NCBI GenBank assembly: GCA_963708045.1
Contig: OY970181.1
Location: 3,740-67,739, forward strand
From: an uncultured bacterium
GTDB lineage: Bacteria > Patescibacteriota > Patescibacteriia > CAIQCM01
Length of the DNA stretch: 64,000 nucleotides
Reading direction: 5' to 3'
The notes under the pieces are model-generated. The model was not told the origin of the DNA. It made no database searches and was given only the letters and a program-made list of their open reading frames with translations. The translations under genes and the position numbers were made by a program. Shown in pieces: positions 32,002 to 54,187 of this stretch; position 1 is the first letter of the stretch, and each line of letters begins with the position of its first letter.

Positions 32002-34515
32002 TTATTTAACAATTATCACGCCAGACCCTTTTTCAAGTTTTTTAAAAAGCAAATACTTCTCTCCAACTTTGATCCTGACAAATTTATTGTTAATAATCTC
32101 GCTTTTAGGAATATTAATTACACCGCCATATTTTTCCTTCAGGGCGTTGCCTTGTGCGAGCATCTCCCGCTCTTCCTTTCTCACAGCACTATCAAGCGCG
32201 TTAAAATCTATTTCAAACTTTCGGCCACGAAGACCAAAGTGGTCAATGATATTGCGCTGACCTTTGAGTTTGGCTTCAGTCTTCTTAAATTTTAGACCGG
32301 CATAATCTTTAACATCGATCTTATCAAGGACACTCTCCGGTGAATTGTTAAAATCGGCGACTTTTTCCAGTGTTATTACGCGCGATCGATATTCGTCGCC
32401 CTCAGCAACCTCGCCGGAATATTCATCAACGATCTTGAAACCCAACCCCTCGGCGAATTCATGAAATTTTGAAACATCACGTAGATCGAGACTATAGATA
32501 AAACTTATCACCGCTCGACCTCCCGGCTTTAAAACGCGATTGGCTTCTTTAAGCACTTCAAGACGTTCAAGCTTGCCTCTGCTTGGAACAAAGCTTGAGT
32601 AATGCAACGCCAAGGCCAGATTAAGATAATCAAACGACTTGTCCGCGAAAGGCAGCTCGCGCCAGCTGGCAACCGCGCTCTGTACTACCTGCTCCTCTTT
32701 CGCCCTTAAATGATACTTATTCGCGTCAACGCTAATTACCCGTTTCTGCAAAGCATCGCCGATATGCTGACGCAACATTTCGGGGCCGGAAGCTACGTCA
32801 AGAATACGCGTTTCTTCGGGCTTACCGCCGCGCTCTTTTAACATTGAGCCGACTAGCGTACCAGCGACACGATTAGCGTTGGCCTGATAACTGCGATTTC
32901 CAAGATCAAGATAGCAGTCGGCATAGTCCTTGCCGTACTCTGACAAAAATTCTCTGAAGCCCTCTTCTCCAATCTCTTTCACGTGCGCAAAGATCCGCAT
33001 CAGTTTATCCCACGACGAGAAATAATACTCTGCTAACTCCCTGCCAACCTCTAAATCGGGATTAGCACTTTGTTCGTCTTCTCTTAAGAGTTGCTTTTCC
33101 AGTTCTTGAATAGGAATGCCGTGAAGTAATTTTTCAATTGCCTGGTATTTCCGTCCGATATACTCGTGGATCCCCTCTTCAAGGGTATTTTTAGTAACAA
33201 AGGTGCGAACGGCGAGGTCGTGCTTCAAGCCCGGTCGGTATACTCGCGACACTTGTTGACGACGATCATATTCCGTCCATGGCTCGTTGTATGTAAAGAC
33301 AGTTTCGGCGGAAGTAAAATCAACACCAACATCGGCTGTCTGGCCGCTCACGACCAAAAGCATCTTACCGGTCGTTTCCCTGAATTTTTTTTGAATTTCT
33401 TCACGTTCGCCGCGATTGCCGCCATGAACAACCATAACCTCGACATCTTGAGGCAGACCGAATTTTGTGATGATATTATCTTTCCCACGAATAACGCCTT
33501 CAATATAACCGTTCACGAATAAAACAGCTTTGTTGTTTTTTGCAAAGCATTCGCGTAAATCATTACCAACTCTTTCAATTTTCGCACTGCGAATTCCCGG
33601 CGTGGCGTCTAATAAGTCCGGGTTCATTAGGAACTGCCGCAACATGGACATTTTCTGTGCCGCCTCTAATTCATCGTCTTCAAGGAGAACTTCATATATA
33701 TCCGTTTCCATTGGTGACAACTCGGTTTCAACTTTCTCCTCACTTAACGCAGGCATCTCCACCCCCTCTTCCAATTTCTTCGCCTGCATACGCGGCAATA
33801 ACAATGACCGCAGATCAACAAGGTCGCCTTGGATTATTTGCCGAACCAGGTCACGATCGTCCCAAGTCGCGAATTTTTCTGGATAAAGTAATTTCAAAGA
33901 GATAGCGATATCTTCGACTTTATTTGGCGCTGGCGTACCGGAGAGCAAGGCTAAATACTTACCTTCGCCTTCAACTTTTTTAGACAGTTCAATCAACTCG
34001 TTTGTCCTTTGTCCTTCCAAATTTTTCAATTTATGAACCTCATCAACAACCAGCATGTCGTATTCCAATGATGCTAGCGCTTGGCTATACCGTTCATTCA
34101 TGCGCTCTTGAGACATAAGCACATAATCGTATTGATCAGCAGTTACTCCGACTAAATCCTCAACCGAAGATACCTCCAAAACTCTCGGTGCTTCGCCGCT
34201 CTTAAAATACCCGCCGTCTTCGCCGCGATCGGACAAATACCGCCTCCAGGTAGAAACAACGTTGCTTGGCGCAACAACCAAAGCACAACCGATGCCAAGC
34301 TGTTCTTTAGCCATGATAACGGAAGCACTTTTTCCAAGACCCATTTCATCGGCGATCAAAAGCCGCCTTTTTTCCGCCAACTCCTTCATATTGATGCGCT
34401 GATTGATATCGGGAAATTCCCTGTTCGGATCAAGCGAATTGAACGAACCGCTCGGGTTTACGGAAATCTTTAAGGACGGAATCGTAATAGCGAATAACGT
34501 CTTGAATAACATCAT
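32002..34515 (-). CDS. SNF2-family helicase fused to a C-terminal class I SAM-dependent methyltransferase domain
   Basis: Helicase motifs I (ADEMGLGKSA), II (DEVHKLKN) and III-VI regions, then a Methyltransf_11-like domain (ILDVASGPEML, VLKPGGRAVISF). 837 aa. ATGA overlap with the upstream repeat-protein gene. Confidence 0.75.
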   Translation of the reverse strand: MMLFKTLFAITIPSLKISVNPSGSFNSLDPNREFPDINQRINMKELAEKRRLLIADEMGLGKSASVIMAKEQLGIGCALVVAPSNVVSTWRRYLSDRGEDGGYFKSGEAPRVLEVSSVEDLVGVTADQYDYVLMSQERMNERYSQALASLEYDMLVVDEVHKLKNLEGQRTNELIELSKKVEGEGKYLALLSGTPAPNKVEDIAISLKLLYPEKFATWDDRDLVRQIIQGDLVDLRSLLLPRMQAKKLEEGVEMPALSEEKVETELSPMETDIYEVLLEDDELEAAQKMSMLRQFLMNPDLLDATPGIRSAKIERVGNDLRECFAKNNKAVLFVNGYIEGVIRGKDNIITKFGLPQDVEVMVVHGGNRGEREEIQKKFRETTGKMLLVVSGQTADVGVDFTSAETVFTYNEPWTEYDRRQQVSRVYRPGLKHDLAVRTFVTKNTLEEGIHEYIGRKYQAIEKLLHGIPIQELEKQLLREDEQSANPDLEVGRELAEYYFSSWDKLMRIFAHVKEIGEEGFREFLSEYGKDYADCYLDLGNRSYQANANRVAGTLVGSMLKERGGKPEETRILDVASGPEMLRQHIGDALQKRVISVDANKYHLRAKEEQVVQSAVASWRELPFADKSFDYLNLALALHYSSFVPSRGKLERLEVLKEANRVLKPGGRAVISFIYSLDLRDVSKFHEFAEGLGFKIVDEYSGEVAEGDEYRSRVITLEKVADFNNSPESVLDKIDVKDYAGLKFKKTEAKLKGQRNIIDHFGLRGRKFEIDFNALDSAVRKEEREMLAQGNALKEKYGGVINIPKSEIINNKFVRIKVGEKYLLFKKLEKGSGVIIVK

Positions 34516-36392
34516 CCAGGTCTTTGTTGTTTAGGTGATGAAATTTTTCGAACGATCTCATCCAGATAATCATAAATTATATCTTGACTCGTCCTATTTG
34601 GATCTTTGCGCCGTTGTTCAAAATAATAGCTCAAACAATGCTCCTTGAGCGCTTCAAACAATCCTTCGCGCAAAGACAGGTCGGAAAGATATTCAACAGC
34701 AACTCCGATATTATCTAAGGTAAATTTTTGCGACTTGACCAAAAAATCGCCGAGGTAATCTGCCAAAATTCCTTTGACATATTCCGGCGGTAAGCCTTTG
34801 TATTCGGGACGGAATTTATAGAGAATATCTAAGGCGTGTGAGCCGCCCAGTACACCGACGAGAACTTGAAATTTTTTTGAATCCACCGATTCACCAACCG
34901 AAAGATCAGAAACAAAAGATTCAATAGAAATACTCGCATTTTTCTTTTCACTTTTTTTATAACATTCATCTTTAATCAACTCTATCAATTCTGGACTCAA
35001 AAACTCTGTGACAAAGCCGTTCCTGCGAAATTTCTTATACCATTCCTGATGTGCGGACCGATACCTGTCAGCAATTTTTTTGATTGCATCCCTCTTGGCA
35101 AAACCGATTCTACTCAACTCGAAAATATTCATCCAATCGTCTGGTGCTACCTCAAACCGTCCGAGATCCGAACGAATCGCCTCAATCAAATCGGGATGAA
35201 AATATTCAACCTTTCCACCAGCGGCTGGCCAATACTTCCTGAACCATTCCGGATGGGCCGCGCGATATTTTTCAGCTGCTTTCCATATGGATCCACGCGA
35301 CCCAATACCGGTTTTGCTTAAAGCAAATACATGCATCCACCCCTCCGGCGGCCTCTCCTTCCCCTCCAATTCATCACTGATAATTTTAACTAAATCTGGG
35401 TGAAAATATTCCAATTCAGGACTGCCAGGTGCCCAATATTTCTTGAGCCATTCCGGATTAGACACACGATACCTTTCTGCTATTGGCGTAATCACATTCT
35501 GCCCGCCGACACCAGTCTTTACGACGTCAAAAACCGTTTTCCACCCTGTGGGCGGTTTTTTCCTGCTTCGTAGTATCGCAATAATTATAGCGACTAATTC
35601 AGGGTGAAAATGTTCAATTTTTAATCCTGTTACGGTCTTGTATTCCTTGAACCATTCCGGATGACTTGTCCTATATGGCCCAACGATCCTATTTATTATT
35701 TTGTCGCCCCCTGTTTCTAAAACACTAATTTGACTCCTATTCATCCAGCCATCGGGTGCAAATTCGAATTTATTTAACTCTTGCCTAATGATTTCGACCA
35801 GATTCGGGTGCAAATATTCGCCGCTCGGGCCCTTTATAGGCCAAAACTCCTTGAACCATTCCGGATGCTCTGCACGATGCTGTTCGGCGTGTTTATTAAT
35901 CGTATCCCTGGATCCAATGCCAGTTTTACTTAAAGCAAATGCATTCATCCATCCCTCCGGTGCCCTTTCCCGTCCCTCTAACTCAGAACGAATTATCGCT
36001 ATCAGATCGGGGTGTAGATATTCGGTAGCAGAACCGGTTTCGGGATAAAAAAATTTAAACCATTCAGGGTGATCGTCCCGATATCTCGCCGCGATACTGT
36101 CAATCGTATCCCTGGATCCAATGCCAGTTTTACTTAAAGCAAATGCATTCATCCATCCCTCCGGTGCCCTTTCCCGTCCCTCTAACTCAGAACGAATTAT
36201 CGCTATCAGATCGGGGTGTAGATATTCCAAAAACCTACCTTCCTCGGTCCGAAAAAGCTTTAACCATTCTGGATGCTCTTTTTTGTATTTTTCAGCTATG
36301 TGCCTAATAACATAATCCTCTACTTTCAAGAGGCTCACCAGATCAATAAGTTTAACCCAGTCTTTGGGAACCTTGTTTGTTTCGAAAATCAT
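34512..36392 (-). CDS. Tandem-repeat protein (about seven 63-aa repeats with HPEWF...EYLHPDLIAIIRSELEGRERAPEGWMN consensus)
   Basis: Protein-level periodicity and a 189-bp DNA periodicity including two identical copies. Probably the downstream part of a longer gene interrupted by a frameshift near 36352-36392. Confidence 0.6.
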   Translation of the reverse strand: MIFETNKVPKDWVKLIDLVSLLKVEDYVIRHIAEKYKKEHPEWLKLFRTEEGRFLEYLHPDLIAIIRSELEGRERAPEGWMNAFALSKTGIGSRDTIDSIAARYRDDHPEWFKFFYPETGSATEYLHPDLIAIIRSELEGRERAPEGWMNAFALSKTGIGSRDTINKHAEQHRAEHPEWFKEFWPIKGPSGEYLHPNLVEIIRQELNKFEFAPDGWMNRSQISVLETGGDKIINRIVGPYRTSHPEWFKEYKTVTGLKIEHFHPELVAIIIAILRSRKKPPTGWKTVFDVVKTGVGGQNVITPIAERYRVSNPEWLKKYWAPGSPELEYFHPDLVKIISDELEGKERPPEGWMHVFALSKTGIGSRGSIWKAAEKYRAAHPEWFRKYWPAAGGKVEYFHPDLIEAIRSDLGRFEVAPDDWMNIFELSRIGFAKRDAIKKIADRYRSAHQEWYKKFRRNGFVTEFLSPELIELIKDECYKKSEKKNASISIESFVSDLSVGESVDSKKFQVLVGVLGGSHALDILYKFRPEYKGLPPEYVKGILADYLGDFLVKSQKFTLDNIGVAVEYLSDLSLREGLFEALKEHCLSYYFEQRRKDPNRTSQDIIYDYLDEIVRKISSPKQQRPG

Positions 36393-36480
36393 TTTTAATC
36401 AATAAAACCAGTTCAGGACTATACTCAATTCTAATCCCCCGCCCTGTTTCAATTTTACGGAACCATTCCGGATGTCCAGC
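34990..36480. repeat. 189-bp-period coding tandem repeat array; two adjacent copies share an identical ~120-bp block
   Basis: The block TCCCTGGATCCAATGCCAGTTTTACTTAAAGCAAATGCATTCATCC...GGGGTGTAGATATTC occurs at ~35909 and ~36098, offset by 189 bp. Older copies are diverged. Confidence 0.8.
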
Positions 36481-36711
36481 TCCGAGTTTATTGGCCAATT
36501 TTCCGATCGTGTAGAAATCAGAATTAAAAAACAGAGAGAGATGATAGGTCGTTTCCCATTTTTCGTTTTCACCAACTTCAACATTATTTTCTGTATTTGA
36601 AAAACCTGATTTGCCGATCTTAAAAACCGATTCATCACTCTTTTGTGGCTGCCCCGTATCGGATCCGTCGTTTTCCACGTCCGGCCGCCATTTTCCCTCA
36701 CCTTCAGACAT
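36352..36711 (-). CDS. N-terminal fragment of the same tandem-repeat protein (contains one HPEWF repeat), out of frame with 34512..36392
   Basis: Ends ...LIKNDFRNKQG while the next ORF begins ...NKVPKDWVKL. Together these restore one repeat unit across a +/-1 shift. Confidence 0.5.
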   Translation of the reverse strand: MSEGEGKWRPDVENDGSDTGQPQKSDESVFKIGKSGFSNTENNVEVGENEKWETTYHLSLFFNSDFYTIGKLANKLGAGHPEWFRKIETGRGIRIEYSPELVLLIKNDFRNKQGSQRLG

Positions 36712-36869: not shown

Positions 36870-37500
36870 GAAAACCGCCAGCTAAACGCTGGCGGTTTCG
36901 TGCTTACCGGCTTAACGCCGGATTTTACTGAAGAGGCTTGGTTGCTCAAGTGTTATTTGGTGATGACTTTGATTCTGAACATATTTTTTAACCGCCTCCT
37001 CATTCACCCCAACGGTGGATACGAAGTAGCCTCTGGCCCAAAGAACACCTTTGGGAAACTTTTTGGTTTTCTTTTTTATCCAACCTGATGTTTTCGCTTT
37101 CAGAATTTGGATGACATACGCGATGGAGTATTTGGGCGGGATGCCGATGTGGAGATGGATGTGCTCATCACCAATGTGCCAAGCATAGATCTTCAAGCCT
37201 TTCCATTGGGCTATTTGGTTGAACATTCGCTTCAGCTCTTGTTTAATGAAGTTGTCCGCCAATACCTTGCCACGGTACTTTGGAGCCCAGACTATATGAT
37301 AGCTGCAGTGATATGTGCAGTGATCTAATTGGCATAGTTGATGGTTTCTGGACATAAAATCACCTCCTTTCTCGGGAGGTTATTTTATCTTATGGACAAG
37401 AGCTACGCTTTTAAACGCACTCGCCAGCTAAACGCTGGCGGTTTATCGTTTATAATGAAAAACCCCACGACTCTCTCCGCAGAGAGTCGTGGGGTTGTTG
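36870..37500 (-). mobile_element. IS200/IS605-family insertion sequence (tnpA only)
   Basis: Y1 HUH transposase ORF flanked by the same hairpin CGCCAGCTAAACGCTGGCGGTTT at ~36876-36898 and ~37422-37444. A strong hairpin (CCCCACGACTCTCTCCGCAGAGAGTCGTGGGG) at 37458-37497 forms the distal end. Confidence 0.7.
36912..37355 (-). CDS. tnpA: IS200/IS605 family transposase TnpA (Y1 HUH)
   Basis: YHIVWAPKYR, HUH motif HIHLHIGIP, and catalytic Tyr region RGYFVSTVG. Confidence 0.8.
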   Translation of the reverse strand: MSRNHQLCQLDHCTYHCSYHIVWAPKYRGKVLADNFIKQELKRMFNQIAQWKGLKIYAWHIGDEHIHLHIGIPPKYSIAYVIQILKAKTSGWIKKKTKKFPKGVLWARGYFVSTVGVNEEAVKKYVQNQSHHQITLEQPSLFSKIRR

Positions 37501-37509
37501 CGATCTTGG

Positions 37510-38598
37510 CTAGGCTATTTTTGATTTTTTCTTAAGCCCAATACACGCACGCTCGGCGTCGGCGAGACGATAGTAAAACTGCGATCTTCCTCCTTTTTCT
37601 TTTGCTCTAAACGGAACAAGGTTATGTTTATTAGCCCTGAACCGTAGCGTTATATAGCAAACACCCATTTTCCGTGAAAGAGCTTTCAACGTACCTACAA
37701 CTTCATCCTGAAAAGTGAAACAGCCGTCTTTGTCAGCTAAGTCAGTAAGCGCTATTTCCAGAACAGGAGTTGCGGCGTTTTGATTTCTCTTTCTTGACCC
37801 CACCAGATCCAAAGATGTATCAACCTCTTCCTTATCACTGTCGTCATCCCGCTCTTCGTCATCATCCACCGTTGTTTCAGTGGCCGAAAGACTTGATTTC
37901 ACTTCGGGAACAACAGCAATCATTTCCCAAGGCTCCCTCCCAACAATCAACCCCTGTTGTCTAAGCTCGTTCAAAATTACCCTACCATCCGAATGAGCAA
38001 GTCTCGCACGCGCGGAAAGAACTGTGAGTGGTGCACTAATACTTCTAAGTCTGTTCGGTAAAACAACAACATGCTCACAGAGTAGTGCAAACGACTGTTC
38101 AACGGACAACGGCTTGGGTTTGATTTCATCTTCCGGTGAAGCCGAGTGTCTCCACTTGCCTTGGTCAGGATCGATTTTCAACTGTCTGCTCCCCGCCTTT
38201 CGCATTCGCGAAGATAGCCTTTCAAGCGCAGTACCAACACTCTCAGCCGTTCTGTTTGTCTTTCTAACCGATCGTTCGTCCGGTGAACACTTGCCACACA
38301 GACACCCTTTGGTGTCTGTTATATGACCAACAACGGAGCATTTTTTACAGCGACGGGTCGCGGCGCAACAACCTGAGCATGCCCGCGGCCTCTGTTCTTT
38401 TTCGCAATCGTTAACTCCGATTAAAGCTCCCGCCAATAAACAATAGACCGTGACCAGTTCTTGATTTCCTTCCACAGGAGCCTCCTTTCTTTGGTTTGAA
38501 GTTGAACCCGGGCGCAATCGTTCTGCGCCCAGGCAAATAGGATCAACGTGCGTAAACAGACGCAACAACTTTCCCAAGACGATCAATCCTATCAACAA
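37510..38598 (-). CDS. Cys-rich hypothetical protein immediately downstream of a sigma factor (candidate anti-sigma/zinc-binding regulator)
   Basis: Long ORF with a CSGCCAATRRCKKC...GCLCGKC cluster and an acidic stretch. The true start is probably internal, because the first 56 nt overlap the sigma gene. Confidence 0.3.
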   Translation of the reverse strand: MLIGLIVLGKLLRLFTHVDPICLGAERLRPGSTSNQRKEAPVEGNQELVTVYCLLAGALIGVNDCEKEQRPRACSGCCAATRRCKKCSVVGHITDTKGCLCGKCSPDERSVRKTNRTAESVGTALERLSSRMRKAGSRQLKIDPDQGKWRHSASPEDEIKPKPLSVEQSFALLCEHVVVLPNRLRSISAPLTVLSARARLAHSDGRVILNELRQQGLIVGREPWEMIAVVPEVKSSLSATETTVDDDEERDDDSDKEEVDTSLDLVGSRKRNQNAATPVLEIALTDLADKDGCFTFQDEVVGTLKALSRKMGVCYITLRFRANKHNLVPFRAKEKGGRSQFYYRLADAERACIGLKKKSKIA

Positions 38599-43535: not shown

Positions 43536-44450
43536 CTACTTTACCTTCTCGCCCCTAACTTGTAAAGAATAACCATCAGTTATGACAGACACATCGCCAT
43601 CAAGATCGGTTCGGAAATATTTGACACTGGTTTTCTTTAAAAGTTCAAGCACGCGCCAAGTAGGAAAGCCATACATATTTCTCACGCCCAAAGACATTGC
43701 CGCATAAGCAGGCGCAACCGCCGCCAAAAAATTTTCACCGGTAGAATACGCGCTTCCGTGGTGTCCAATTTTTATAAAATCAGCCTTGGGGTTAATGCTG
43801 GACGCGAGTATCTCGTCTTCAACAACCGTTGTCGCGTCACCCATTAAAAGAAAATTTAAATTTTTATATGACAGCATTCCAACAATGGACGAATCGTTTA
43901 ACCCGTCGTTGCTTCCCTTGTGCTTTTTGTCCACGTCAATTTGATTTTCGTAATGCAAAACCTTAAACGACATTTCGCCAACCGCTTCCAGTGAAGCATT
44001 TGAGGGGTTAACAATCAAAATATTTTTTTCTTTGATCGTTGCGTCAAAATCGCGTTGAATCATACTTCCTGAAATCGCATCAGTTTTAAGAATTTTACCG
44101 ACGGAATATTTTTTAATTACCGCATCAAGCCCGGTAATGTGGTCTGAATGCGGGTGGGTTAAAATAATTAGATCAATCGTATTGTCCCCCGCTGGCATTA
44201 CTTCGCCGAGTTTGGCAAGAATAGATGCGTCCGGGCCGCCGTCTATTAAAATTTGCCTGTCGCCGACTTCGGCAAGAATTGAATCACCTTGTCCAACGTC
44301 AAAAACATAAAGACTCATTTCGTCGGGTTTAGGCGGCACTGGCGCGCGCGAACTTATTCTTTCAAGATACGGAACACCAAAAAGGAGCACCCCGCCCATC
44401 GCGGCTGTTAAAAAATAATGACGAAAATTTTTTCTAAAGCGTCGCAACAT
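43536..44450 (-). CDS. ComEC/Rec2-family metallo-beta-lactamase domain protein
   Basis: MBL motif HPHSDHITG and downstream Asp/His ligands. N-terminal TM anchor. Confidence 0.75.
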   Translation of the reverse strand: MLRRFRKNFRHYFLTAAMGGVLLFGVPYLERISSRAPVPPKPDEMSLYVFDVGQGDSILAEVGDRQILIDGGPDASILAKLGEVMPAGDNTIDLIILTHPHSDHITGLDAVIKKYSVGKILKTDAISGSMIQRDFDATIKEKNILIVNPSNASLEAVGEMSFKVLHYENQIDVDKKHKGSNDGLNDSSIVGMLSYKNLNFLLMGDATTVVEDEILASSINPKADFIKIGHHGSAYSTGENFLAAVAPAYAAMSLGVRNMYGFPTWRVLELLKKTSVKYFRTDLDGDVSVITDGYSLQVRGEKVK

Positions 44451-45618
44451 CTTTTTCTTTTATTTTTATATAAACGGCGACTGCAATTAAGCCAGTGGTC
44501 ATTATTATTGCCGCGGCAAAACCGGAAAATAATTGGTTTACGCCAGCAAACGGTAAGCGAGAAAACAATTTAACAAGCGAGAGGTCGTAATTGGTAAAAA
44601 TTTGTGCGACTAAACCAACCAACCTGCCCGCGGGAACAAAAATTAACGACGCTATTGCCGTTAAAAATCCAAAAAACATCGTTACCCCAATAAAAGGCAA
44701 AAGCAAAATATTAGTCGGCAAAGCGACAAACGAAAACCGGCCAAAAACAAAAAGCATTATCGGCAAAGTGGCAAAAGTGGCGGCGGTGGTCGCGACGGCC
44801 ATTTCGCGCAATTTCCATCTTTTAGTTATAAACGAAAACAGCGGCGTTAACGCGGGGCTAAAATATATAAGACCAAACGTGGCGGCAAACGACAAAAGAA
44901 AACCGACATCCGTTCCAATTAAGCGCGGTGAAATTAAAAGCATTGCCGCGGCGGCGACAAATACAGCGCGGCCGGCCTGCGACTCGCGACCAACCGCAAT
45001 GGCAATCATCATTACCATTACCATCACTCCAGCGCGGACAAGCGACGACGGCGCGCCAGTAAGAATTATAAAGATAAGGAGCGTCGCGGCAACTAAAATT
45101 TTTCTTAAAATTTTTCCAAACGGCAGTGACAAAAATATATTGTCCAAAAATTCAGAAATAACCGTCAGGTTCCAACCGGAAAGCGCCATCACGTGAACCG
45201 TCCCCGTCGCGACAAACGCTGCCTTAAGATCGGCGGGCAATTTTCCTTCGCCAACAAGCAGACCATTAATGAACGAGGCATGCGGTTCGGGAAGCGCCAA
45301 AGCAACCGCGTTCATAAAAGTTATTTTAATTTGCGGAAAAAGAACGAAATCTACAGGCACGCCGGACGACAAAAAACGACAAAAACCGCAAGCAAAAAAA
45401 GACGCCATCGCAAAAATAAATCGCCACGTTTTTCCAATCGGCAAAAAGAAAATTACTATTCCCGTTCCAAATGCGCCAATCCAGAAAGGTACGAGACTTG
45501 GAAATGTTTTTTCGGGAAAAAACAACGCACCAAAACAAATGCCAGCCACAAACGAACCAACGGCGAAAATAAAATTAGCCGAGGGCGAGGCGATAATTTT
45601 TAAAAATCCCCCTTTCAT
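44434..45618 (-). CDS. ComEC/Rec2-family competence membrane channel domain protein
   Basis: Polytopic membrane protein with competence-domain-like region. 17-nt overlap with the MBL-domain ORF, so the two together equal a split ComEC. Confidence 0.65.
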   Translation of the reverse strand: MKGGFLKIIASPSANFIFAVGSFVAGICFGALFFPEKTFPSLVPFWIGAFGTGIVIFFLPIGKTWRFIFAMASFFACGFCRFLSSGVPVDFVLFPQIKITFMNAVALALPEPHASFINGLLVGEGKLPADLKAAFVATGTVHVMALSGWNLTVISEFLDNIFLSLPFGKILRKILVAATLLIFIILTGAPSSLVRAGVMVMVMMIAIAVGRESQAGRAVFVAAAAMLLISPRLIGTDVGFLLSFAATFGLIYFSPALTPLFSFITKRWKLREMAVATTAATFATLPIMLFVFGRFSFVALPTNILLLPFIGVTMFFGFLTAIASLIFVPAGRLVGLVAQIFTNYDLSLVKLFSRLPFAGVNQLFSGFAAAIIMTTGLIAVAVYIKIKEKDVATL

Positions 45619-53212: not shown

Positions 53213-53890
53213 CTACTCATTTTTGTCGAGGCGAAACCTCGGCCAATCAGAATCTATGCGCTTTTTCCCAATCAACCCTAACACAAAATCGCGGTATTTC
53301 TTTTTATTTTTAAATTGATTTAATACTATTTCTGAATTATCTACAATACTCTCTCCTTGTCTAATACCGATGTAATCAAAGTAACTAGACCATTTAAATT
53401 TATTGAGTAAACGATTTAATAGTTGCATATCGTGGCAATTGGGCGTAATTGCTTCCACTGGATTTAAGTGAATATAGCGCGTTAAATGAAGTAAGTATGA
53501 ATTATCTTTGATATGTTTGCTTTTAAAAACTCCTTGGAACAATACTCCCGATCTTTCATAACGCTTATTAAAATACATAGTGTACCCAGTTAATAATTTT
53601 TGAATATATTTTGATATCCCGTTTTCTTGTACCTGCTCCAGTATCAAATGAAAATGATTTGGCATTAAACAATATGCGACAATTTTAACCAAAGCCTCTG
53701 GCCGATTTGGTCGAGGCGAAACCTCGGCCAAAAGACGATTAAAATGATTAATTGGTTCAAGCGAGTTAAATAATTTCATACCAAGAATGAACCGCTCATA
53801 ATCTTTGTTTTGTAAAAAGACACGCCTTTTATCTGTCCCCCTATTATAAATGTGATAAAATTCACCATTAGTAAAAACCAGGTTACGCAT
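53213..53890 (-). CDS. REP-associated tyrosine transposase (RAYT, IS200-like Y1 transposase)
   Basis: YHIYNRG, HUH motif NHFHLIL, and conserved Tyr region. Flanked by REP hairpins. Confidence 0.7.
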   Translation of the reverse strand: MRNLVFTNGEFYHIYNRGTDKRRVFLQNKDYERFILGMKLFNSLEPINHFNRLLAEVSPRPNRPEALVKIVAYCLMPNHFHLILEQVQENGISKYIQKLLTGYTMYFNKRYERSGVLFQGVFKSKHIKDNSYLLHLTRYIHLNPVEAITPNCHDMQLLNRLLNKFKWSSYFDYIGIRQGESIVDNSEIVLNQFKNKKKYRDFVLGLIGKKRIDSDWPRFRLDKNE

Positions 53891-54113
53891 AATTTTTTTA
53901 AAAACTTAAGACTTATGATCCAACCTAGGCTCGACATAATTAATTCTCAATAAATGTGTCCGTTGTGGATAACACCCCTATTTTGTTGAGGCGAAACCTC
54001 GACAAAATAGGGATTTCCAAGAGTCTCAAGTGTTAGTCATCACCAACACCCGCTTTAACAAAACATCAAATGAATTAGAAATTGGTCTTTGGCCGAGGTT
54101 TCGCCTCGGCCAA
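53222..54113. repeat. REP-like palindromes (GGCCGAGG-TTTCG-CCTCGGCC type) around and inside the RAYT gene
   Basis: Four copies at ~53222-53243, 53708-53740 (inside the RAYT CDS), 53979-54010 and 54089-54113, in both orientations. Confidence 0.7.
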
Positions 54114-54187
54114 TCGCCTTGGTCAATTATTTTAAATAGCCGCCCCGATAGTAATCGGGGCGGCTATAATGCTTCATGTTCGATGTT

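Follow-up and report, generated by a model that had tools for sequence, protein, structure and literature searches.

The closest solved counterparts of the motor protein encoded at this locus are the Snf2/Rad54-like ATPases (e.g., Sulfolobus solfataricus SSO1653, PDB: 1z63), in which an SNF2-related N-lobe is combined with a Helicase_C domain. The same arrangement is present in ORF C, an 837-aa reading frame in the window (i.e., the whole 64-kb stretch of DNA that we analyzed). Pfam reports SNF2-related (PF00176: 61.9 bits against a cut-off of 24.9, 6.9e-17) and Helicase_C (PF00271: 41.9 bits, cut-off 23.5, 1.3e-10) matches; residues 32–443 align to 1z63 (4.4e-18), and the Walker A motif, GLGKS, lies within a segment, ADEMGLGKSAS, that is conserved in all relatives. 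By these matches ORF C belongs to the Snf2 family of ATPases (SF2 translocases), with both predicted lobes present. Residues 572–670 also match PF08241 (Methyltransf_11; 46.3 bits, cut-off 21.2), and we assign this part to the predicted class I SAM-dependent methyltransferases of that type. The gene differs in two respects from the bacterial families RapA/HepA and the defense proteins ZorD, DrmD and DpdE, which have neither a Methyltransf_11-type (UbiE/BioC-like) fusion nor an N-terminal array of 68-aa repeats. Indeed, assignment to ZorD, DrmD, DpdE, BrxH or RapA fails on score: NCBIfam profiles for bacterial Snf2 proteins gave 34–57 bits against cut-offs of 500–1500 (57 vs 1200, 50 vs 500, 34 vs 576), and the PADLOC matches are confined to the generic helicase core. 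No partner genes of Zorya, DISARM, Dpd or BREX were found among the scanned neighbors (rpsL, rpsG, fusA, a sigma factor and an IS200 element), and a literature search on the repeat–Snf2–methyltransferase architecture returned nothing specific.

The repeats that precede the motor can be compared with excisionase/MerR-like helix-turn-helix (HTH) proteins, including tandem pairs (TraN of pIP501, 4pm3; 2kvv; TubR; the ArsR/MarR/PadR wings), with which they share a helix-helix-wing-helix order in prediction. AlphaFold models of two units (pLDDT 93.9) and of one unit (pLDDT 90.7) have the topology helix, helix, β-hairpin (the wing), helix. The best PDB matches to the unit model are weak and below significance (E 0.05–0.08, TM 0.26–0.54), and each of the leading fold matches is a DNA-binding protein of winged-helix or HTH type; in BFVD, one match at E 9e-5 is to an uncharacterized phage protein, and HTH and Excise proteins come next. 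We infer from these models that the unit is a small winged-helix-like domain and a putative nucleic-acid binder. On the other hand, unlike known HTH families, its signature (GW...YR..HPEWF...EY.PELV) matches no Pfam HTH family in the copy searched. Pfam HTH matches to units and homologues are sub-threshold, a PDB profile search with the repeat unit gave nothing significant, and no Pfam, NCBIfam or PADLOC family scored above threshold for the repeat protein ORF B; PF26109 is precomputed for some of its homologues. Unlike the tandem-pair HTH proteins, this module occurs as 2–12 units head to tail per chain among the 120 homologues listed. In the same 120, it stands N-terminal to an Snf2-methyltransferase, C-terminal to DEAD/SWI2-type helicases, or with a ~240-aa unknown domain. 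Named homologues are almost all from Patescibacteria, with a few MAG labels otherwise (e.g., Bacteroidetes, Gammaproteobacteria). The locus thereby draws attention to an uncharacterized 68-aa winged-helix-like repeat module, which on the predicted fold may serve to target motor proteins to DNA in the reduced genomes of Patescibacteria.

At this locus the architecture is distributed over four pieces of one 4.7-kb gene (32002–36711; this gene and all of its parts lie on the minus strand). From N- to C-terminus, its layout is an acidic leader, eight repeats of 68 aa, a conserved linker of ~150 aa, a double-stranded-DNA translocase core of the Snf2 family (Snf2 ATPase and Helicase_C) and the class I SAM methyltransferase, with a tail at the C-terminus. 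Fragment 1 (ORF A, 119 aa; 36352–36711) contains the acidic leader and repeat unit 1. Fragment 2 (ORF B, 626 aa; 34512–36392), which is identical to a database protein (P0001), contains units 2–8 and most of the linker domain. Fragment 3 (34439–34546) is a conserved 36-aa linker segment, KFHHLNNKDLDDVIQDVIRYYDSVLKDFRKPERFVQ, that can be read in the third frame only, where it sits within a 47-aa mini-ORF (34573–34430); it aligns without gaps to 22 relatives and is 64% identical to P0044 in a separate frame (tblastn). Fragment 4 (ORF C; 32002–34515) supplies the Snf2-related domain, Helicase_C and Methyltransf_11. The ATG of ORF C overlaps the stop of ORF B (ATGA) and derives from the conserved codons GAT GAT GTT, which encode the DDV of LDDVI.

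When three bases are deleted, these pieces become a single ORF of 1,568 codons with zero internal stops; over its 4.7 kb the repaired frame has accumulated no nonsense substitutions. The concatenated ORFs produce one BLASTP HSP across the ORF B/ORF C junction to fused homologues: residues 463–1536 of the concatenate are 58.6% identical to P0044, and the concatenate is 41–45% identical to P0042, P0070, P0093, P0101 and P0116. In the converse search, tblastn of P0044 recovers the locus as four segments, read in frames 2, 3, 1 and 2 in turn. To judge from these alignments, ORF A, ORF B, the 36-aa piece and ORF C are fragments of one gene. The deposited annotation instead lists three proteins (119, 626 and 837 aa) and misses the conserved 36-aa piece, so counts of gene content or of 'small novel proteins' in this genome are misled by three unrelated-looking annotated proteins.

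The three bases to be removed mark three +1 frame changes. ORF A ends in ...NDFRNKQGSQRLG followed by a stop, ORF B begins with MIFETNKVPKDW, and the two overlap by 41 nt, ORF B being +1 relative to ORF A. Frame change 1 (36381–36396) has the sequence AAAAATGATTTTCGAAAC and is best placed at TTT-C-GAA (36388–36384). Deletion of one base here restores ...IKNDF/ETNKVPKDW, a normal unit boundary, and this placement yields N-D-F/E, matching the S-E-L-E of other units. A TTCGAAA heptamer, with its TCGA, coincides with this site, and the units on either side of it are diverged (30% identical in protein). Frame change 2 (34541–34553; GTTCGAAAAATTT) is best placed at GTT-C-GAA, giving I-V-E-K-F, with the Glu at a position where relatives mostly have E or D; it lies on a second TTCGAAA heptamer and TCGA site. 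Frame change 3 (34435–34443; GTTCAATTCG) adds one base ahead of CTT, the codon for a conserved Leu, and has neither TCGA nor a homopolymer. The sequence at sites 2 and 3, 390–500 nt beyond the array, is unique. The original prediction of a frame change at 36352–36392, and of a perfect unit when the two frames are joined, is borne out; its view that a frameshift splits the gene captured only part of the damage, which comprises three +1 shifts and four pieces and takes in the neighboring Snf2/methyltransferase ORF.

Comparison of orthologous loci, a check suggested with the original prediction, bears directly on how this arrangement arose. In all 22 relatives from genome and metagenome collections, the gene is a single, uninterrupted frame (1,033–1,768 codons) that runs through all three positions; there is no length difference at sites 2 and 3, the same leader and first unit run in frame into unit 2, and no split orthologue was found in any relative. 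The closest genome in the genome-contig scan is at most 65% identical at the amino-acid level, and a second homologue search with the linker as target found nothing above 62% identity. The nearest relative (L028, from the metagenome scan) is 88% identical in amino acids and 79% in nucleotides over the last 383 codons; its contig begins mid-gene, lacks all three sites, and has no flanking DNA in common with the window. Against this relative dN/dS is ~0.02, with dS saturated, and such long-term purifying selection implies that any decay must be recent.

Judged from sequence, the reading frame is broken relative to intact orthologues, which is the mark of a pseudogene. Furthermore, the damage is confined to 32002–36711 among the window genes checked, bar a possible split of ComEC: by full-length profile match, EF-G, EF-Tu, SecY, S7, S12, adenylate kinase, MetAP, ScpA, ScpB, D-Ala-D-Ala carboxypeptidase, T2SS E and F and the sigma factor are all intact. 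Our preferred reading, to which we give a probability of roughly one half, is that the +1 insertions are real and that this is a young pseudogene, i.e., a horizontally acquired and recently inactivated gene with a gene-conversion tract in its array. Of the three options in the original prediction, the pseudogene is the best supported, by the 22 intact relatives and by the local nature of the damage. On this reading, the repeats would serve to hold or place the Snf2 motor and the methyltransferase on DNA; three separate one-base insertions, lying, we infer, in the organism's own DNA and not just in the assembly, would interrupt the gene, with the 119-, 626-, 36- and 837-aa fragments remaining translatable. 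The gene, probably gained horizontally, would have lost its function and would now be in the course of being lost itself. Several features sit awkwardly with this reading. ORF C keeps its complete Snf2 and methyltransferase parts and an ATG, and some function could survive. Bacterial pseudogenes usually gather deletions, and for that reason three events that are all single-base insertions are a poor fit to random decay. The placement of two of the three shifts on TTCGAAA/TCGA and the lack of nonsense substitutions also speak against this reading.

Alternatively, the insertions would be a local sequencing or consensus error and the organism would carry an intact 1,568-codon gene, which we consider possible but doubtful. 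Each of the three +1 insertions adjoins short A or T runs, their repair generates a perfect ORF with no further defect, and the source contig, a single 1.19-Mb piece, is compatible with long-read assembly. Error could have arisen in a strain-variable, low-coverage island built from few long reads, with which the gene's atypical TCGA content is compatible; or a methylated TCGA/TTCGAA motif could have provoked systematic miscalls, two of the events being on TTCGAAA/TCGA, a motif avoided by the genome and so maybe methylated. However, the other 36 background ORFs (12,193 codons) are without a frame break where checked, and A/T runs are retained across the window (231 with ≥6 bases, 58 with ≥7 and 12 with ≥8), so that homopolymer resolution looks good. 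In addition, 27 of the 29 TCGA sites are in unbroken frames or outside genes, including those flanked by homopolymers at 35119, 52824 and 3990, and site 3 is neither a TCGA nor a homopolymer. The particular form in which error had been proposed, as a fault of assembly within a repeat, does not fit: site 1 is between diverged units, and the sequence around sites 2 and 3, beyond the array, is unique.

The positions of the breaks relative to the domains invite another explanation, namely a tolerated gene fission, after which ORF B would still function as a protein of repeats and linker, and ORF C as an Snf2-methyltransferase in its own right whose translation is coupled through the ATGA overlap. 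Whole domains are kept, because site 1 coincides exactly with a unit boundary and the other two sites fall within the linker, just ahead of the Snf2 core; there is an ATG near the start of each fragment, the 4.7 kb has no stops or other lesions, and in many homologues the repeat module occurs alone or with other partners. We nevertheless regard fission as unlikely. The conserved 36 aa encoded between sites 2 and 3 would either be lost or be made as an orphan peptide, the orthologues are a single chain in 22 of 22 cases with no split example among them, and the ATG of ORF C is a by-product of the conserved GAT GAT GTT codons. Shine-Dalgarno (SD) motifs are uninformative here on whether ORF B and ORF C have starts of their own, because few of the 36 start regions listed contain an SD-like motif.

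Another key observation is that sites 1 and 2 contain the sole two TTCGAAA heptamers on the coding strand of the window, in the same codon phase (xTT CGA AAx). This raises the question of programmed +1 recoding at xUU-CGA-AA (sites 1 and 2), together with a third site, giving nested products of up to 1,568 aa. The described precedent is prfB-type +1 frameshifting, which takes place at CUU UGA C with an upstream SD-like stimulator. Sites 1 and 2 resemble it in the +1 direction, in having a rare or slow zero-frame codon after a U-rich P-site codon, and in the nearby zero-frame stop: each of the three shifts is +1, CGA is little used for Arg here (4.5 per thousand), a zero-frame stop follows each site by 2–11 codons, and at site 1 (TTT CGA AAC) Phe-tRNA could, we surmise, move from UUU to pair with UUC; apart from the shifts, the ORF has no flaw. 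Unlike the prfB type, however, the sites are not conserved, the sequence read upstream of them shows no SD-like stimulator, the third site is a misfit, and there are three sites in series, from which very little full-length product would result. A shift at any of the three positions occurs in 0 of 22 orthologues, which read in-frame xTT-CGA normally 28 times (including CTT CGA AAA and ATT CGA AAG). At site 2 (GTT CGA AAA), GUU-to-UUC re-pairing is poor; at site 3, TTCG is in another codon phase or without CGA, and the Leu demands a shift before CTT, where there is no tRNA re-pairing. Scans of tRNA and Rfam models for a quadruplet-reading tRNA or a frameshift element found four ordinary tRNAs only. 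We therefore hold recoding to be highly improbable.

Phase variation by slipped-strand mispairing at the frameshift site, the remaining option of the original prediction, is scarcely credible. Short runs (A5, T4) do adjoin the frame change and the gene contains recombinogenic repeats, but runs at the three sites are A5, T4 or TT at most, Tandem Repeats Finder reports no simple repeat there, and there is thus no long simple repeat of the sort that this option needs. Runs of 4–5 bases are far below useful switching tract lengths (the window has 592 A/T runs of at least 5), all three independent shifts would need to revert, and the 204-bp units are a multiple of three, so that unit number cannot switch the frame.

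A broader proposal is that the three +1 events are non-random and reflect a sequence-specific process at TTCGAAA/TCGA, either xUU-CGA-AA decoding or a TCGA-linked one-base insertion. If three sites were placed in the gene at random, two or more of them would come within 3 nt of a TCGA with a probability of ~0.002, a post hoc figure; the chance that two of three random sites in this repeat-rich gene share some 7-mer within 3 nt is 4.7%. The shared-7-mer statistic is weaker than it appears, and the TCGA coincidence is the stronger of the two figures. Were +1 decoding true, the products would form a regulated series, from repeats alone up to the full-length Snf2-methyltransferase; were site-directed insertion true, a TaqI-like (TCGA) restriction-modification system would be acting on newly acquired DNA. 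We judge a sequence-specific process to be distinctly improbable. The frameshifts are most likely ordinary gene decay, and their overlap with a strongly avoided restriction-type motif is the sole potentially unusual element.

The distribution of that motif is also a main pointer to the origin of the gene. The window contains 29 TCGA sites where a Markov model expects ~246 (~88% purged), and 11 of the 29 are in this one gene, against 0.65 expected at the background density of 0.14 per kb (Poisson P ~1e-10). Such a concentration in a TCGA-depleted genome suggests a foreign origin. In relatives L004, L006 and L010, TCGA is depleted both from the flanks and from the orthologues. The gene's codon usage is in the lower tail but is no extreme outlier, and no synteny with rpsL, rpsG or fusA was found in relatives. 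Horizontal acquisition is probable, resting mainly on the TCGA density and the absent synteny. Elsewhere in the window the xTT-CGA pair does not occur. We considered this as a sign of a shifty motif but rejected it, since general TCGA avoidance accounts for it.

We also characterized the repeat array itself, which would be a separate matter from the frameshifts. It comprises eight tandem coding repeats of 204 bp (34941–36570), unit 1 having 66 codons and the others 68, with units 2–8 in exact register from 36368 down to 34941. In the repaired protein, HPEW anchor motifs occur at residues 80, 146, 214, 282, 350, 418, 486 and 554, i.e., with a spacing of 66 aa once and 68 aa six times thereafter, and a profile made from the units picks up all eight. 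Tandem Repeats Finder calls the period of 204 just for the two most similar units (35898–36269). Both the HPEW spacing and this call replace the 189-bp period first proposed with one of 204 bp (68 codons); the coding array placed at 34990–36480 is genuine but wider, at ~36570–34941 on the minus strand.

Two copies of an exact 126-bp block, encoding EYLHPDLIAIIRSELEGRERAPEGWMNAFALSKTGIGSRDTI, are offset by 204: the upstream copy (36102–36227) spans the end of unit 2 and the start of unit 3, and the downstream copy (35898–36023) the end of unit 3 and the start of unit 4. An exact block had been anticipated, at ~120 bp and at 35909 and 36098; its existence is confirmed, with its size and positions corrected as above. 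Identity at offset 204 is 100% within the block and declines to 0.6–0.7 within ~40 nt on each side; the units that carry the perfect tract are otherwise 50–69% identical. DNA identity among the other units is 40–69%, mostly 40–55%, in agreement with the earlier description of them as diverged, and they appear old. Since the tract is shorter than one unit, it points to gene conversion or unequal recombination and not to a fresh whole-unit duplication: it would be a conversion or unequal-recombination tract between adjacent units, normal for such arrays. Units 3, 4 and 7 are 61–70% identical to each other in protein and at most 48% identical to any of 627 units from other proteins; on these identities they are a lineage-specific subgroup. 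The recombination originally envisaged among units is upheld as recent homogenization (by the 126-bp tract, the unit 3/4/7 subgroup and the 2–12 units in homologues). Exact intragenic repeats at unit-multiple offsets are likewise found in relatives L007, L023, L025 and L029. The array is similar to those of surface proteins and TAL effectors in having a unit length that is a multiple of three, a copy number that varies among homologues, and a conversion tract. In contrast to those arrays, its units are mostly old (40–55% nucleotide identity) and not near-identical, and, unlike surface antigens, the module would be cytoplasmic and helicase-associated.

Upstream of the gene, 160 bp from its start codon, is an IS200/IS605-family element (36871–37441, minus strand) with the hairpin CCGCCAGCGTTTAGCTGGCG at both ends; its tnpA (37355–36912) matches Pfam Y1_Tnp (1.6e-33) and NCBIfam transpos_IS200. 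This element may be relevant to the inactivation or the acquisition of the gene. A promoter scan gave no more matches than in shuffled sequences. Separately, we noted that the order sigma factor, ORF, IS200 is shared with a 6.5-kb contig of a relative that has a near-identical sigma factor; that contig breaks off at the IS200 element and so stops shortly before reaching the gene.

Coding sequence in the repeat region lies on the minus strand, where the ORF listing gives two frames, ORF A (36711..36352, 119 aa) and ORF B (36392..34512, 626 aa), that overlap by 41 nt and differ in frame, ORF B being +1 relative to ORF A. Translation across this junction reproduced both readings that the original prediction had placed at 36352-36392: one frame ends in IKNDFRNKQGSQRLG followed by a stop, and the other runs on as MIFETNKVPKDW. 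That frame change is real, though it is not the only one: two further +1 changes lie downstream, giving three in all. When the repaired repeat protein (translated after removal of the extra bases) is concatenated with the downstream 837-aa ORF C, the product aligns with fused homologues in one HSP that spans the ORF boundary, with 58.6% of residues identical in the homologue P0044 and 41-45% in five further fusions. With P0044 as tblastn query, four minus-strand segments are required, in frames 2, 3, 1 and 2; the third, of 36 aa (34546-34439, minus strand; 64% identity to P0044), falls outside both ORF B and ORF C. Three-frame inspection of the minus strand sets the extra bases at GAT TTT C GAA (site 1, ~36381-36396), ATC GTT C GAA AAA TTT (site 2, 34541-34553) and GTT CAA TTCG CTT (site 3, 34435-34443); removing one base per site yields 1,568 codons with no internal stop.

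We compared orthologous loci, as had been proposed with the original prediction, using 21 loci from a genome-collection scan, eight from a metagenome scan and the contig of P0044. Twenty-two loci have the orthologue in one uninterrupted open frame (1,033-1,768 codons, several cut by contig ends), whereas the gene is disrupted here. We left one Gracilibacteria locus (L015) out of the 22, as translation with table 11 gave an open frame of just 229 codons; this lineage reads UGA as a sense codon. Relatives align to the repaired window sequence through sites 2 and 3 without gaps; the alignment favours Glu at site 2 (E or D in most relatives) and needs a conserved Leu directly after site 3, and in N-terminal alignments the leader and unit 1 of relatives continue in frame into unit 2. 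In the collections searched, no relative exceeded 65% identity over the full length, or 88% over the C-terminal 383 codons (reached by L028, the nearest, a metagenomic locus), and no flanking DNA common to L028 and the window was found. Against L028, dN/dS is ~0.02 (dS is saturated), from which it follows that the gene was under strong constraint for nearly its whole history. A tolerated fission, with the gene divided into separate frames, we consider improbable.

Is the damage local? Thirty other open frames of the window were scanned against Pfam and NCBIfam, and full-length matches were obtained for EF-G, EF-Tu, SecY, S7, S12, L29, adenylate kinase, methionine aminopeptidase, ScpA, ScpB, D-Ala-D-Ala carboxypeptidase, T2SS E and F, dihydroorotate dehydrogenase and a sigma-70 factor. 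The sole other candidate split among the frames scanned is in ComEC/Rec2 (43536-45618, minus strand), where two overlapping ORFs cover TIGR00361 positions 125-362 and 406-663 (Competence domain, 394 aa; metallo-beta-lactamase domain, 304 aa); at their junction (44434-44459) the second is +1 relative to the first and an A5 run lies within the overlap; either a fourth frameshift or a natural division of the gene is conceivable here. Long A/T homopolymers are kept in the window (58 of at least 7 and 12 of at least 8). Three breaks in the 4.7 kb of this gene, compared with none or one in ~37 kb of other coding sequence, disfavour a uniformly error-prone assembly and point to a gene-specific cause. 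An assembly error confined to this locus is a less favoured but realistic possibility.

Sites 1 and 2 share a motif. All three copies of the palindrome TTCGAA in the 64 kb lie within the disrupted gene. The coding strand has just two copies of TTCGAAA, which coincide exactly with sites 1 and 2 and share a codon phase (TTT CGA AAC and GTT CGA AAA). Simulations placing three sites at random in the gene gave a probability of ~0.002 that two or more lie within 3 nt of a TCGA and of ~0.05 that two share some 7-mer, both being post hoc figures. A basecalling error specific to methylated TCGA is possible, but 27 of the window's 29 TCGA sites are unaffected. Programmed +1 recoding at the motif we rate as very unlikely, given that orthologues read 28 xTT-CGA pairs in frame, that the lack of in-frame pairs elsewhere in the window is accounted for by avoidance of TCGA, and that site 3 is without the TTCGAAA motif. 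This one odd coincidence aside, the case is ordinary in kind.

TCGA, a TaqI-type site, is ~8.5-fold depleted in the window (29 sites, from 2404 to 58223, against ~246 expected from a Markov model). Eleven sites are in the disrupted gene (0.65 expected from background density, P ~1e-10) and ten at 52.5-54.2 kb, a stretch where REP-like hairpins abound, leaving just eight in the remaining ~57.6 kb. Depletion is common to some relatives (L004, L006, L010), and in depleted relatives the orthologues are depleted too, so the copy studied here appears un-ameliorated and of recent acquisition; in codon usage it falls within the lower tail without being extreme. The most likely explanation, at a probability of roughly one half, is that a horizontally acquired wHTH-repeat/Snf2/methyltransferase gene has recently become a pseudogene. 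The interpretation first offered for the gene was partly right. Other palindromes are also scarce in the window (GTCGAC 0, CTCGAG 1, CTATAG 1), and together these scarcities suggest restriction-modification pressure. A REP-like hairpin, ~26-31 nt long (TTGGCCGAGGTTTCGCCTCGGCCAA and its variants; four copies in both orientations, 53217-54114), supplies much of the second TCGA cluster, and its core has five matches against 0.08 expected by chance; two copies lie within a 225-aa ORF (53213..53890).

An IS200/IS605-family element (36871-37441, minus strand; tnpA 37355..36912), with the hairpin CCGCCAGCGTTTAGCTGGCG near each end, sits 160 bp upstream of the repeat gene, in the interval separating that gene's start from a strong terminator hairpin (37496-37461). 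Between it and the sigma-70 gene is a 362-aa ORF (37510-38598, minus strand) that has a Cys-rich stretch and the most atypical codon usage of the window; Pfam, NCBIfam and PADLOC assigned it to no family. The sigma-ORF-IS200 order is repeated in a relative's contig (Logan sample ERR12035931), which ends at the IS and in which the ORF's counterpart has 321 aa. Genes of the window are almost all on the minus strand; a Shine-Dalgarno motif is recognisable at few starts of the 36 minus-strand ORFs, the exceptions including the IS200 tnpA and sigma factor genes, which have GGAGG-like motifs.

As to the repeats themselves, the original prediction was mostly right in what it observed, and apart from the frame-change count the corrections concern the period and the block coordinates. 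A profile built from the units detects eight in the joined protein, with HP(E/Q)W anchors at residues 80, 146, 214, 282, 350, 418, 486 and 554; anchor spacing and TRF (for the two units most alike) give a period of 204 bp, not 189 bp. Units 2 to 8 keep an exact 204-nt register from 36368 to 34941, at 40-69% DNA identity. The exact duplicate is genuine; its length is 126 bp instead of ~120 bp, and its copies lie at 35898-36023 and 36102-36227 (minus-strand coding) instead of ~35909 and ~36098. It takes in the final 20 codons of a unit plus the opening 22 of the one after. At offset 204, identity is 100% throughout these 126 bp, falling to 0.6-0.7 on either side. A tandem duplication that had just occurred should have left 204 identical bases, so the simpler reading is a conversion tract, or unequal exchange, among units that were already alike (2, 3 and 4). 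Units 3, 4 and 7 share 61-70% of residues with one another, compared with at most 48% with any of 627 external units, and four relatives also contain exact intragenic repeats at unit-multiple offsets. Units have a length divisible by three, so such exchanges alter unit number or sequence, never frame, and they are unrelated to the frameshifts; phase variation, also raised at the outset, is exceedingly unlikely.

ORF C contains SNF2-related, Helicase_C and Methyltransf_11 domains and is homologous to solved Snf2/Rad54-like ATPases, scoring far under the cut-offs of RapA, ZorD, DrmD and DpdE. No curated family in Pfam, NCBIfam or PADLOC matched the repeat protein. AlphaFold models (pLDDT 93.9 for two units, 90.7 for one) have a helix, helix, beta-hairpin, helix fold; the best Foldseek matches are TraN, an excisionase, TubR, ArsR/MarR/PadR regulators and phage HTH/Excise proteins, and no match to a solved structure reached significance (E ≥0.05, TM ≤0.54). 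The predicted nucleic-acid-binding array would position the motor and methyltransferase. Homologues carry the same repeats fused to helicases, and those with a named source are mostly labelled Patescibacteria. The module occurs in 2-12 copies and three architectures, as the C-terminal part behind either a DEAD/SWI2-type (SWI2_SNF2-type) helicase (~515 aa) or an unknown domain (~240 aa), or as the N-terminal part ahead of Snf2-methyltransferase. Some orthologous Snf2-methyltransferase genes have 350-560-aa N-terminal regions missed by the unit profile (at L017 it recognises one short fragment only), and their N-terminal module may differ from the 68-aa units. The 68-aa module, uncharacterised and noteworthy, is promiscuous; the observations on its partners and on these N-terminal regions concern homologues P0002-P0120 and loci L002, L006, L009 and L017.
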